Part shown: positions 17,827 to 39,226 of the stretch, in pieces
Layout of the letters: every line of letters begins with the position of its first letter
Numbering within the stretch: position 1 is the stretch's first letter
Source: Phycisphaeraceae bacterium
GTDB taxonomy: Bacteria > Planctomycetota > Phycisphaerae > Phycisphaerales > Phycisphaeraceae
Direction of reading: 5' to 3'
DNA: 64,000 nt
NCBI GenBank assembly: GCA_963674705.1
Contig: OY771506.1
Span: forward strand, 2,880,001 to 2,944,000
The notes under the pieces: generated by a model
Database searches by the model: none
Told to the model about the DNA's origin: nothing
The model's input: the letters and a program-made list of their open reading frames with translations, nothing else
Program-made: the position numbers and the translations under genes

Positions 17827-17829
17827 GCA

Positions 17830-17946
17830 AAGCCAATAGCTTTTAGCCGTTAGCCATTAGCACGGACATAAAAGACGACAGCAGATTGAACATTAGAGAT
17901 TAAACATCAGAAATTAGAGATCAAAAACCCCCAAACCCTAGACCCC
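17830..17946. repeat. Three consecutive 7-bp-period arrays in the flgB-flgC gap
   Basis: aagccaa tagcttt tagccgt tagccat tagc; agattga acattag agattaa acatcag aaattag agatcaa; aaacccc caaaccc tagaccc. Confidence 0.75.
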
Positions 17947-17952
17947 ACCAAC

Positions 17953-18707: not shown

Positions 18708-18774
18708 CACCACAAGCCGCGCACTGCCGACCGGAGGTCGGTTGTCGCGGATCAAATAAGCGCGGAGCGCTTCA

Positions 18775-18800
18775 TAGCCAATAGCTCATAGCTAAAAGCT
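18775..18800. repeat. 7-bp tandem array (TAGC-type) before fliF
   Basis: tagccaa tagctca tagctaa aagct. Confidence 0.7.
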
Positions 18801-18818
18801 TCTTCGGCATGGAGGCCG

Positions 18819-21494: not shown

Positions 21495-21503
21495 CTATTG
21501 CAT

Positions 21504-21538
21504 GCTAACGGCTAAAGGCTAACAGCTAAGGGCTCATT
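21504..21538. repeat. 7-bp tandem array (GCTAANG, reverse orientation of the TAGC-type)
   Basis: gctaacg gctaaag gctaaca gctaagg gctcatt in the fliG-fliH gap. Confidence 0.8.
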
Positions 21539-21540
21539 CA

Positions 21541-29237: not shown

Positions 29238-29243
29238 CTATTC

Positions 29244-29333
29244 AGGCTTGAGACTTGAGCGGTGAGGCTTGAGCAAAAACCGCTCAGCCCTCAAGCCCCA
29301 AAACTCAAGCCTCAAGCCTCAGGACTCAAGCCT
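29244..29333. repeat. Inverted pair of 7-bp arrays (AGGCTTG... / ...CAAGCCT)
   Basis: aggcttg agacttg agcggtg aggcttg agc ... ctcaagc ctcaagc ctcagga ctcaagc ct, filling the flgE-flbD gap. Confidence 0.85.
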
Positions 29334-29338
29334 ACCCA

Positions 29339-30664: not shown

Positions 30665-30667
30665 TAA

Positions 30668-30733
30668 AAGCCGTTAGCCTTTAGCTCAGAATCTAACCAC
30701 TAACCACTAACCACTAACCACTAACCACTAACC
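30668..30733. repeat. 7-bp arrays between motA and motB
   Basis: aagccgt tagcctt tagctca, then (TAACCAC)x5 + TAACC. Confidence 0.9.
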
Positions 30734-30742
30734 GTCCTCCTC

Positions 30743-35529: not shown

Positions 35530-36600
35530 ATGGCTGAGAATCAATTTGAAAAAACCGAAGCCCCAACGCCACGGCGCAAGCAGGAAGCGCGTGAGGATGG
35601 CAACGTGGCGCGCAGCACAGACCTGACTGCGGCGATCATGTTGCTGGCGGCCATCGTGGCGTTGAACGTGCTGGGCACACGGATGATTCAGACACTGGGC
35701 CATGCGACACGTGTGCTGTTGAGTTCAGAGCACCACCCGAACCCGACGCGCATCGATGGGCTTGGTGAGAGCGCTTACTACAGCGTGTACATGTTTGCGA
35801 TAGCGCTCGGTCCGATCGTGTTGGCGATCATGGCGGTGGGTCTGCTGGCATCATTGGGGCAGGTCGGTTTCTTATTAACGCTTAAGCCGCTTCAGCCTAA
35901 CTTCGGCAAGCTGTCGCCGATCAAGGGCGTGTCGAACCTGTTCAGCGCCCGTGCGGGGATGCGGCTGGTGATGAGCGTTTTGAAAGTGATCCTGATCGCG
36001 ACGGTGGCGATCTGGTTCGTGATGGGTGACATGCCACGCATCCTGCATATCGCGGAGATGGAGGCGCTGCAGGCGTTCGCCGCGGCGGGCACGATCGTTT
36101 ACGTGCTTGCGCTGAAGCTTGCTCTGCTTCTGCTGGTGATGGCGATCCTGGATTATGCGTTCCAGCGCTATCAGCACGAGCAGGATCTGAAGATGAGCAA
36201 GCAGGATGTGAAGGAAGAGATGAAGCGGATGGAAGGCGATCCGATGGTCAAGCAGCGACGTACACGTGTTGCACGTCAGCTCGCGATGCAGCGGATCGCT
36301 CAGGCGGTGCCGAAGGCAGACGTCGTGGTGACGAACCCGACGCATTACGCGATCGCGCTGCAATACGATTCGCAGACGATGCGGGCGCCGAAGGTGATCG
36401 CCAAAGGCGCAGACTTCATGGCGATGCGTATCCGCCAGATCGCGATAGCCAACGGCATCCCGCTGGTCGAGCGCAAGCCGCTGGCGCAGGCGTTGTACAA
36501 GCACGTAGAGATCGGCGATGAGGTGCCGCCGGAACATTACACGGCGGTGGCGGAGATTCTTGCTTACGTTTACAGGTTGAGTGGGAGGAAGTCGGCGTAG
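35530..36600 (+). CDS. flhB: Export switch protein FlhB
   Basis: EKTEAPTPRR, KRMEGDP and the NPTH autocleavage motif. Confidence 0.98.
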   Translation: MAENQFEKTEAPTPRRKQEAREDGNVARSTDLTAAIMLLAAIVALNVLGTRMIQTLGHATRVLLSSEHHPNPTRIDGLGESAYYSVYMFAIALGPIVLAIMAVGLLASLGQVGFLLTLKPLQPNFGKLSPIKGVSNLFSARAGMRLVMSVLKVILIATVAIWFVMGDMPRILHIAEMEALQAFAAAGTIVYVLALKLALLLLVMAILDYAFQRYQHEQDLKMSKQDVKEEMKRMEGDPMVKQRRTRVARQLAMQRIAQAVPKADVVVTNPTHYAIALQYDSQTMRAPKVIAKGADFMAMRIRQIAIANGIPLVERKPLAQALYKHVEIGDEVPPEHYTAVAEILAYVYRLSGRKSA

Positions 36601-36604
36601 CGAC

Positions 36605-36636
36605 AAGCCATTAGCCATTAGCCGTTAGCCATTAGC
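36605..36636. repeat. Left 7-bp array flanking the four-helix-bundle gene
   Basis: aagccat tagccat tagccgt tagccat tagc. Confidence 0.95.
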
Positions 36637-36647
36637 TAGAAAGACGT

Positions 36648-37019
36648 ATGGGACAGACTTCACGAGATTATGCGAAGCTTCAGGTGTGGCAGAAAGCCCA
36701 CGTGCTGACGCTGCGCATCTACGAAGCAACTCGACGTTTTCCTGCTGATGAACGGTTTGGTTTGACCAGTCAGATGCGGCGATCGGCGGCCTCTGTGCCG
36801 GCGAACATTGCTGAAGGCTGTGGGCGTGGCGGTGAAAGTGAACTGGCCCGGTATCTGCAGATTGCTCAGGGCTCCGGATCGGAGCTGAGTTACCACCTGC
36901 TGCTAGCTCGCGATTTGGGCTTTATGAAAGAGGAGATCGCAAACGAACTCATTAGGTTGTCGCGTGAGGTTACACGCATGCTCCAGTCCTACCGTTCCAA
37001 GCTAAGGGCTAATGGCTAA
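36648..37019 (+). CDS. Four-helix-bundle protein (23S rRNA IVP / TIGR02436 / Avd-like family)
   Basis: LQVWQKAH, FPADERFGLTSQMRRSAASVPANIAEGCGR, YLQIAQGSGSEL and LARDLG. Confidence 0.95.
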   Translation: MGQTSRDYAKLQVWQKAHVLTLRIYEATRRFPADERFGLTSQMRRSAASVPANIAEGCGRGGESELARYLQIAQGSGSELSYHLLLARDLGFMKEEIANELIRLSREVTRMLQSYRSKLRANG

Positions 37020-37032
37020 TGGCTAATGGCTT
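37001..37032. repeat. Right 7-bp array (reverse complement of the left array)
   Basis: gctaagg gctaatg gctaatg gctaatg gctt; contains the four-helix stop codon and the flhA start (TAATG). Confidence 0.95.
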
Positions 37033-39226
37033 AAACACCACCCCCGCATGGCTTCTACGGCTGTACAAGTACCGGCCGTTGTTGGTGCCTATTGCTTTTA
37101 TCGGGATGTTGGCGATGGTGGTGGTGCCGATGCCGCCGATGTTGATGGACTTGATGATCTCCATGAACATCGCTCTGGCGGCGATCATTCTGCTGACGAC
37201 GATCTTTGTCGAAAGCCCCTTGGACTTTTCCGTGTTCCCGTCGCTTTTGTTGGGTACGACTCTGTTCCGGCTTGTGTTGAATATCGCAACGACGAAGATG
37301 ATCCTATCGGCCGACCCGACAAGCCCGCAGGCGGCGACGGCGGCGGCGGGGAAGGTGATCCAGGCGTTTGCCGAGTTCGTGACGGGTTCGTCGATTGTGG
37401 TCGGCGTGGTCATGTTCTCGATCCTGATCATCATTCAGTTCGTCGTGATCACCAAAGGTGCGACACGTATTTCGGAAGTGGCGGCGCGTTTCACGTTGGA
37501 CGGGATGCCGGGCAAGCAGATGGCGATCGACGCTGATCTGAACGCCGGGCTCATTGATGAGCAGACGGCCCGCATGCGTCGTGAAGCGATCGCACAGGAA
37601 GCCGATTTTTATGGAGCGATGGACGGTGCTGCGAAGTTCGTTCGCGGCGACGCGATCGCGGGCATCATCATTACGATCGTGAACATCCTCGGCGGGTTTG
37701 CGATCGGTGTGTTTATGAACGGCTGGACGATCGCGGAATCGGTCGATGTGTTTACCAAGCTGACGGTGGGTGATGGTCTTGTGTCGCAGTTACCGGCGTT
37801 TGTGATTTCGGTGGCGGCGGGTTTGATCGTGACGCGATCCAGCAGCCGACAGGACCTGGGGACGGAACTGACGGGGCAGTTGACCAGCCGAAAAGCGGCG
37901 CTGGGGATCACATCAGGATTTCTGATCTTGCTGGGGCTATTGACGCCCTTGCCGACGGCGCCGATGTTGTTGCTGGGTCTAGCGTTAGGTGGATTTGTGT
38001 TTATGACGCACCGGTCGGCGGCGCAGGTGGCGCAGGTCGAAGCGCAGAAGGCTGCCAAGCCTGCGCGTGCGGATGAGTCGCCGGTCGAAGAGGTGATGAA
38101 GGTCGACATGCTCGAGCTTGAAGTGGGGTATGGCTTGGTACGTCTGGTGGATCAATCGCAGGGCGGAGATCTGTTGAACCGGATCACGATGATCCGCAGG
38201 CAGTTGGCGACGGAGATGGGGCTGGTGATGCCGCCGGTGCGTATCCGCGACAACATGCAGCTTCAGCCTAATGATTACCAGATCAAGATCCGCGGTAACG
38301 TGATGGCGCGCGGTCAGGTGCATCCCGGCAAGTACCTGGCGATGGACTCGGGGCTTGCCAGTGAACCGTTGAAGGGCGTTAAGACGGTCGAGCCTGCGTT
38401 CGGGTTGGAAGCGGTGTGGATCAGCCCGGGCCAGAAGGAACGTGCCGAGGCGCTCAACTACACGGTCGTCGGCGCGACGGATGTGTTGGCGACGCATATC
38501 ACCGAGGTTGTGCGTAACCATGCACGCGAACTGTTGACGCGCGAAGAGACAAACAACCTTATCATCCAGTTGAAGGAACGTGCACCGAAGCTGTGCGAAG
38601 AGGTGCTGCAGCCGACGGGCGACAAGCCACCGCTGGTCAAGCCGGGCGAATTACAGCGTGTCTTGCAGAACCTGTTGTCCGAGCGTGTGCCTGTGCGTGA
38701 TCTTGAAGTGATAGTGGAAACGTTAGGCGATTGGGCGACGCGGACAAGAGATTTAGATGTTTTGACAGAATATGTACGAAATTCACTTAGTAGGACGATC
38801 TGTAATCTGTACACTGTGTCAGAACCATCGGGTGATGGCACGAATCCAGGTATGACGTCGAACAAGTTATATTGTGTAAGCCTGGACCCGGCGATAGAGG
38901 ATCAAATCAACGGCTATGTCGAAAGGTCGAACGAGGGGACAAGCATGACAATGCCGCCGGCGGTTGCGAACAAGATAACTGGGGCGATCCTTGAAGAGTT
39001 GAATCGTCTGACTCAGATGGGTCATCACCCGGTGCTGTTGGCGTCGCCGCAAGTCCGTGGGCCAGTCAGGCAATTGATCGAACCGCACCTGCCGACGGCG
39101 GCGGTATTGGGATACAACGAAGTCAGTAAGGGGGTCGAGGTCGAGGCGCTGGGTATGGTGCAGATGCCGCAACCACAGCAGGCCGGCGGCCGCAGGGTTG
39201 AAGAATTACAAGGGGCAGTTAATTGA
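37019..39226 (+). CDS. flhA: Export apparatus protein FlhA
   Basis: FSVFPSLLL, EVAARFTLDGMPGKQMAIDADL and FYGAMDGA. Confidence 0.98.
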   Translation: MANGLNTTPAWLLRLYKYRPLLVPIAFIGMLAMVVVPMPPMLMDLMISMNIALAAIILLTTIFVESPLDFSVFPSLLLGTTLFRLVLNIATTKMILSADPTSPQAATAAAGKVIQAFAEFVTGSSIVVGVVMFSILIIIQFVVITKGATRISEVAARFTLDGMPGKQMAIDADLNAGLIDEQTARMRREAIAQEADFYGAMDGAAKFVRGDAIAGIIITIVNILGGFAIGVFMNGWTIAESVDVFTKLTVGDGLVSQLPAFVISVAAGLIVTRSSSRQDLGTELTGQLTSRKAALGITSGFLILLGLLTPLPTAPMLLLGLALGGFVFMTHRSAAQVAQVEAQKAAKPARADESPVEEVMKVDMLELEVGYGLVRLVDQSQGGDLLNRITMIRRQLATEMGLVMPPVRIRDNMQLQPNDYQIKIRGNVMARGQVHPGKYLAMDSGLASEPLKGVKTVEPAFGLEAVWISPGQKERAEALNYTVVGATDVLATHITEVVRNHARELLTREETNNLIIQLKERAPKLCEEVLQPTGDKPPLVKPGELQRVLQNLLSERVPVRDLEVIVETLGDWATRTRDLDVLTEYVRNSLSRTICNLYTVSEPSGDGTNPGMTSNKLYCVSLDPAIEDQINGYVERSNEGTSMTMPPAVANKITGAILEELNRLTQMGHHPVLLASPQVRGPVRQLIEPHLPTAAVLGYNEVSKGVEVEALGMVQMPQPQQAGGRRVEELQGAVN

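Follow-up and report, generated by a model that had tools for sequence, protein, structure and literature searches.

A candidate passenger cassette at the flhB-flhA junction of a Phycisphaeraceae bacterium: a four-helix-bundle gene between inverted heptamer arrays

The best described counterpart of the locus reported here is the S23p intervening sequence (IVS) in Coxiella burnetii, an ORF-bearing insert in 23S rRNA with a 28-bp heptamer stem that is cut by RNase III (Warrier et al., 2016, PMC4990558). As that paper sets out, a terminal stem of some 30 bp has a protein of the same family as ours encoded in its loop, and the tandem heptamers, whose number varies between strains, precede the ORF. 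A second likeness is to the Ssn nucleases and their NTS/SRM repeats, for which the sections cited describe small single-domain genes with cognate inverted repeats on both sides, many gene-less copies, and protein-repeat pairs that co-vary (Chenal et al., 2025, PMC11893778). REPINs are likewise described as extragenic inverted doublets with a short spacer, thought to be derived from the repeats flanking an autonomous RAYT gene (Bertels and Rainey, 2011, PMC3116915). Both of these pairings of gene and repeat have been put to the test. Homology of the diversity-generating retroelement (DGR) accessory protein Avd to PF05635 has also been reported (PMC10053308).

Heptamer repeats such as TAACTGA (MacGregor, 2015, PMC4679880) and GGGAATC (PMC4692102) occur in bacterial intergenic DNA as polarised runs just past stop codons or before start codons, often in inverted pairs. 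The main texts of these two papers do not name a four-helix-bundle gene. Going by those texts, heptamer arrays beside stops and starts are already published, with no link to a cargo. The cyanobacterial STRR are further bacterial intergenic heptamer repeats.

The locus studied here lies in a window of 64,000 nt, the whole stretch of DNA that was analysed, and its features are as follows.

35530..36600, + strand: flhB, host gene (TIGR00328, 388 bits above cut-off)
36605..36636, + strand: left arm, some 4.5 heptamer units in tandem (AGCCATT, with AGCCGTT once)
36648..37019, + strand: four-helix-bundle cargo gene, 123 aa, PF05635/TIGR02436 (profile match, predicted fold)
37001..37032, + strand: right arm, inverted copy (GCTAAGG, 3 x GCTAATG, GCTT)
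37017..37021, + strand: TAATG, where the cargo stop and the flhA start overlap, in this allele only
37019..39226, + strand: flhA, host gene (TIGR01398, 826 bits)
36601..37018, + strand: exchanged unit, the entire 418-nt flhB-flhA spacer (from comparison with sister genome G004 and sequencing run X6)

In contrast to the Coxiella IVS, this cassette sits at a protein-coding operon junction rather than within an rRNA gene, and its cargo is under purifying selection and interchangeable with an unrelated cassette. It differs from Ssn in its cargo, which is a four-helix bundle or a PD-(D/E)XK protein rather than a GIY-YIG nuclease, and in its arms, which are tandem 7- to 10-mers rather than single hairpin motifs and which fill junctions from stop to start. 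REPIN-RAYT systems differ in that the unit here holds no HUH (Y1) transposase, the arms are direct tandem arrays, and several families of arms, linked to different cargo clades, share one genome and one slot. The lack of a transposase also separates it from IS elements and MITEs. Unlike the published heptamers, arrays of this type are tied to a cargo gene and are found in intact, gene-less and solo states at the same junctions. The armed cassette is not described in the parts of PMC10053308 or bioRxiv 10.1101/2024.02.27.582315 drawn on here, and a search that covered mostly open-access papers brought up no account of armed cassettes sitting at operon junctions.

The left arm begins after a 4-nt gap from the flhB stop codon. 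The final cargo codons fall within the right arm, which is entirely coding, first for the cargo C-terminus and then for flhA codons 1-5. Third-position GC content is 57% in the cargo against 72-77% in flhA and flhB. The earlier note had described the two arms as near-perfect reverse complements, and they do pair over 30 Watson-Crick positions with one G-U (36624/37013) and one mismatch (36631/37006), enclosing the 123-aa gene; TAATG does fuse the cargo stop with the flhA ATG, which lies inside the right arm. In the folding that it proposed, run here on 36590-37050, the minimum-energy structure is closed by this stem (z -4.14; none of 100 shuffles equally stable). In the best-matching sequencing run a DNA contig crosses 35400-37533 with zero differences from the window, so the cassette is not an assembly artefact. 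There was no Rfam match in 36300-37400 and no promoter in a sigma-70 consensus scan of the cassette, and the one terminator-like match, inside flhA, is at chance level.

The family assignment made earlier is secure, the protein passing both curated cut-offs (PF05635, 129.6 against 33.8 bits; TIGR02436, 124.3 against 24). PF05635 and bAvd were the only matches in a profile search of the cargo, with no GIY-YIG domain among them. The structure model (pLDDT 89) has four helices and matches 2GSC and 2RLD, and Avd more weakly, with a predicted shared fold at a TM of about 0.75. The closest structure is Xcc0516 (2GSC, five chains), at 38% identity, and BT_0352 is also close; this identity to a five-chain structure suggests that the window protein may be a homopentamer. 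A link to DGRs was considered and rejected: the Avd profile NF033474 scores 23.6 bits against a cut-off of 80, no reverse transcriptase adjoins the gene, and the only one in the genome (L325:1309-2589, 426 aa), about 960 kb away, adjoins no cassette.

Arrays flanking other members of the family, which the earlier note had proposed to look for, are common. The window gene's nearest relatives, 80 in number, come from many phyla; 79 have flanks, and 55 of these carry inverted arrays (period 7 in 54), against one of 139 displaced control windows; the other 24 fall under the arm threshold. A second set was built from 80 relatives of the GxxExxY gene that occupies the slot in G004. Here 47 of the 73 with flanks are armed, with period 10 in 43, against none of 97 displaced controls. 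For three other paralogues the armed relatives number 20/25, 9/12 and 14/17, and each group has its own words. The repeat word tracks the protein tree of 96 genes (nine changes at one unit position, against 23.7 when shuffled), and arms are 4-5 units long in 61 of the 96. Kin that share arm words show co-inheritance of arm and cargo only. A residue-to-base code was sought and set aside; the strong column signals follow clades, and the independent pairs, two to three in number, were too few to show one. Armed four-helix-bundle loci begin a median of 3 nt past a stop, and 48 of the 51 that were assigned have an upstream gene reading in the same direction (27 of 28 when assigned by homology). The 28 identified upstream genes are 25 different ones. 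By these comparisons the arms belong to the cargo and not to the host. In a virus collection, contigs gave six and three loci for two of four query proteins and none for the other two. On six such contigs (L316-L321), which may be a vehicle, the window gene has armed relatives whose word is a variant one.

The contents of the slot were surveyed in 130 stretches upstream of flhA (one genome is present twice and one lies outside the family), of which 128 show flhB. Four of these 128 junctions hold a four-helix-bundle cassette (four genera) and nine a GxxExxY cassette (six genera), while 15 hold a gene-less hairpin (score of at least 14), 40 a spacer of 40 nt or less, and 60 something else. Empty sites, which the earlier note had suggested seeking, do exist, and 115 of 128 junctions carry no cargo. 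The GxxExxY cargo (PD-(D/E)XK), with arms of 10-mers, is unrelated to the four-helix-bundle cargo with which it shares the slot; further copies there are L236 and L422 (flhB off the contig). The stem begins 1-9 nt past the flhB stop in 12 of the 13 filled junctions. No transposase or integrase is encoded in the exchanged unit, the cargo being PF05635 or PF13366 instead. By eye, no target-site duplication is evident between filled and empty junctions, and the empties, whose sequences vary widely among hosts, have already diverged.

The 11 GxxExxY genes of the slot form a single cluster in their tree (3 changes against 10.7 when shuffled), in a comparison set that had been collected as relatives of slot genes, and between genera they diverge roughly in step with their hosts. 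Residence is therefore long, and new insertions may be rare; the GxxExxY lineage is an old resident of the slot that is frequently lost.

Sister genome G004 shows the exchange at close range. The comparison covered 1.20 of 5.76 Mb, of which 1.03 Mb aligned at 94.1%. In G004 the slot holds a 446-nt PF13366 (GxxExxY) cassette that extends exactly from the flhB stop to the flhA ATG. The window genome has eight armed cassettes in total, three of which are common to G004 at 99-100% identity. In place of the other five, G004 has GxxExxY cassettes at two sites and, at one site each, another four-helix-bundle cassette whose arms differ, a hairpin without a gene, and a shorter spacer. The swaps between four-helix-bundle and GxxExxY cargo are at flhB-flhA and between a moxR-type AAA gene and a DUF58 gene. 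Seen reciprocally, three G004 cassettes lie opposite gene-less hairpins in the window genome, and one lies opposite 23 nt. Among 165 differing stretches of 60-1100 nt, 32 have an inverted pair on at least one side and 133 have none. One operon of the window genome (C1:2214186-2222842; L006, L351) has three successive junctions filled, by GxxExxY, four-helix-bundle and GxxExxY cassettes; in G004 the middle junction holds a different GxxExxY cassette and the first cassette is absent.

Exchange is also seen among sequencing runs. A contig of run X6 breaks from the window junction at the same two points as G004, with 446 other letters between them, whereas run X3 has a heptamer arm joined to an flhB allele sharing 31 listed differences from the window with X6. 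Like flhB alleles with different slots point to recombination among close strains. Removal of the cassette without replacement was not among the joints listed in four DNA contig sets (contigs drop rare variants).

The window genome (5.54 Mb) contains 174 arrays of period 7, against 3-40 at periods 5, 6, 8, 9 and 10. Arrays with units of 6 to 10 nt form 155 inverted pairs, some of which are cross-pairs between neighbouring elements. In the census of PF05635 genes that the earlier note had recommended, five of six are armed, with five different words, and each fills one of these junctions:

flhB-flhA
E1 alpha-E1 beta
fabH-fabD type
lepA-Nudix
AAA-DUF58

The sixth, a divergent unarmed gene (L004:1435-1839), differs from its G004 counterpart by 22 synonymous and 6 non-synonymous codon changes. 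Three genomes of the genus have it next to the same upstream gene, and it looks domesticated. All three PF13366 genes are armed, with 8- or 10-mers, and one contains a stop. At groEL-dnaJ (L211:1450-1890) a GxxExxY cassette with 8-mer arms and an internal stop lies where G004 has a gene-less 10-mer hairpin. No DUF559 gene, which could have been a third cargo, was found in this genome.

Using gene calls made in the present analysis, gene-less pairs fill 73 spacers and two pairs lie within called genes. Twenty of the 73 spacers are convergent (12.9% expected), and the pairs begin a median of 12.5 nt past a stop (n = 42). A second inverted pair is nested in 22 of 61 longer loops, against 11 of 1220 random controls. 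At C1:2292076 and C1:1342761, for example, hairpins from two or three families of arms lie one within the other. Hairpins that have a CCCTCACCC-type core make up another common family, despite the missing DUF559 gene. No cargo remnants were found in the loops of 88 gene-less hairpins, so their descent from cassettes is hypothetical. A Y1 (RAYT-like) transposase gene lies between its own palindromic repeats at C1:2628340-2629222; the 14 Y1_Tnp matches in the genome are all away from the cassette.

The start of flhA carries a further trace. An arm-like ATGGCTAA begins flhA in 9 of 10 stretches of the window genus, 6 of 15 in a second genus and 4 of 103 elsewhere, and it persists in cassette-free relatives of both genera; at L418 a four-unit array spans the flhA start with no cargo. 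The closest relative of the window protein (62%) comes from another genus and also occupies the flhB-flhA slot, with the ATG in the arm. We read this start as a leftover arm that was retained as the beginning of flhA; alternatively, the flhA start may act as a target that attracts the cassette. A chance match of the host start to the arm was dropped as an explanation, the second genus having the same cassette type and arm relics.

Other nearest family-level relatives occupy fliE-fliF, fliG-fliH and motA-motB (L067, L072, L135) as intact four-helix-bundle cassettes. The window has arm relics of the same word family at these junctions, which are among the four flagellar junctions, besides flhB-flhA, that carry heptamer arm relics:

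17827-17952
18708-18818
21495-21540
30665-30742

The flagellar stretch has four such arrays in 29 spacers against 0.65 expected, the top value among 151 stretches, although it was chosen post hoc. Together with the operon of three filled junctions, these relics are a hint of local spread. A gene-less hairpin with another heptamer word, whose unit number differs in G004, lies between two flagellar genes at 29238-29338.

On balance, we favour the reading that the locus is a passenger cassette that is gained, swapped and lost as one unit in the flhB-flhA slot, with a protein that probably binds single-stranded nucleic acid at its own repeat word. Counting against it are the missing transposase, integrase and evident target duplication, the long residence of the GxxExxY lineage, the remnant-free loops of the 88 hairpins, the relatives under the arm threshold and the unarmed gene of this genome. 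The unit, its exchange, the cargo-arm association, selection and position come from sequence comparison. Homologous recombination through the flanking flhB and flhA genes would let strains trade what the slot contains, and this use of the flanks is a fairly safe deduction. The predicted five-subunit ring may read about five 7-base units. Rings that bind cognate repeats have a precedent in TRAP, and SsnA and RAYT offer further analogies; with 4-5 units in most arms and a five-chain homologue, such binding seems to us an evenly balanced proposition. Reading of the repeats, as by Ssn nucleases and RAYTs on repeats flanking their own genes, could favour the occasional copying of a cassette into a new junction, frequently one within the same operon. 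Cassettes would then decay into gene-less hairpins and finally into solo arrays, which would explain the many heptamer runs next to stop and start codons. The old right arm may have turned into the first flhA codons. Standard translational coupling is the basis for expecting ribosomes that finish the cargo at TAATG to open the stem and restart on flhA; held open in this way, it would still allow FlhA to be made.

A broader version of this reading is possible, but we hold it more tentatively. Operon junctions would then be contested slots, in which transposase-less elements with unrelated small proteins, each reading its own repeat code, evict one another. A five-part ring would read 7-base units and a PD-(D/E)XK nuclease 10-base units, with copies landing behind stop codons. 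The scars would be the unexplained heptamer excess in bacterial genomes, and some, as at flhA, would have been recruited as core-gene starts.

The strongest competitor to the passenger reading, though an unlikely one, is an intervening sequence of mRNA, in which RNase III would cut the stem in the transcript and the freed RNA would be the mobile form. The earlier note's IVS-like interpretation holds up in so far as the anatomy equals that of ORF-bearing 23S rRNA IVSs, as in the account of Coxiella with its heptamers in an RNase III-cut stem (PMC4990558). The 32-bp stem has a duplex energy of -55.4 kcal/mol, the genome encodes RNase III, the cassettes are strictly co-oriented with the host transcript, and the fold resembles Avd, the partner of a reverse transcriptase. 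However, a selected RNA stem should have more G-U than A-C mismatches on the sense strand, and the counts in three stem sets (44 against 47, 38 against 33 and 77 against 79) show no excess, so selection at the RNA level is not supported. Mirror matching of variant units, at 0.071 per base against 0.060 in the cross-pair control (p 0.31), was also discarded as proof of pairing selection, being large against unit shuffles but not in excess of that control. The arms act more like two inverted site arrays than like a tuned helix, judging by these counts. A cut could also behead flhA, whose start lies in the all-coding right arm, and the sole reverse transcriptase is distant.

Slot-specific homing is rather improbable. 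Each junction's own lineage would re-invade empty alleles, with the GxxExxY nuclease cutting and the four-helix-bundle cassette competing for that slot or sheltering in it. PD-(D/E)XK homing endonucleases do exist, and the GxxExxY lineage is slot-bound and patchy, with intact ORFs in six genera. The following cassette fits as well, as it is identical (0/470 differences) in genomes that are about 6% apart, inside a 688-nt identical run:

L002:1425-1895 (window genome C1:1196470-1196940): E1 alpha-E1 beta cassette

However, 2.3% of all 400-nt windows are identical between the two genomes and there are 85 such runs, so ordinary recombination can explain this cassette. The four-helix-bundle protein has no known catalytic site, and the widely differing empty junctions also count against homing.

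We give slightly less weight again to a gene that serves the host, such as an SsnA-like recombination modulator or defence factor under selection, with the repeats as binding sites spread over the genome. Purifying selection on the four-helix-bundle cargo is indeed strong (dN/dS 0.03-0.11 in 8 of 11 pairs, the other three being saturated), and GxxExxY cargo gives 0.08-0.18 in three of six pairs, with the other three saturated. Gene-less copies are many, as described for NTS/SRM repeats (PMC11893778), and the upstream neighbour of an unarmed copy recurs at 3 of the 16 related loci that were tested. Against this, turnover between the sister genomes is rapid (five of eight), pseudogenes occur, and unrelated cargo is interchangeable within one slot.

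A translational or phase-variable FlhA switch, in which the start is concealed by a stem that translation of the cargo opens, with coupling tuned through the number of repeats, is very improbable. In its favour, the ATG is paired at a computed probability of 1.0 in naked RNA, a related strain differs in repeat number in a way that alters the overlap (with one extra heptamer, 6 nt would separate cargo stop and flhA; one contig, depth 2.8), and the ATG is again in the arm in G357, but across the 13 filled junctions it lies deep in the stem (14-15 nt inside) in two, at the stem edge in one and 2-17 nt beyond in 10, it is deep at only 5 of 29 other operon sites, most junctions have no cargo, and the differing cassette of the sister genome leaves the ATG outside the stem. 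The built-in stop/start coupling that the earlier note had proposed fails as a shared property, TAATG occurring in one of the three alleles in which a cassette of this type has the ATG inside its arm; that of G357 has 19 nt in place of the overlap. A stem opened by ribosomes makes the cassette tolerable and is not a conserved design. Of the two roles suggested at the outset, the switch falls and the cassette stands, strengthened by the exchange of unrelated cargos in the same slot.

The passenger reading brings together, in a single object open to testing, a very large protein family that lacks a function, the polarised heptamer arrays beside bacterial stop and start codons, and the rRNA intervening sequences, the last of which resemble one of the landing sites used by a broader class. 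The flhB-flhA junction provides a matched set, with two unrelated cargos that have their own periods, gene-less hairpins, clean losses and an arm turned start codon, and so supplies cognate and non-cognate pairs for a comparison of binding. If these proteins do read their own repeats, they would be new sequence-specific nucleic-acid binders, and the precedent of Ssn indicates that gene-repeat pairs can yield new enzymes.
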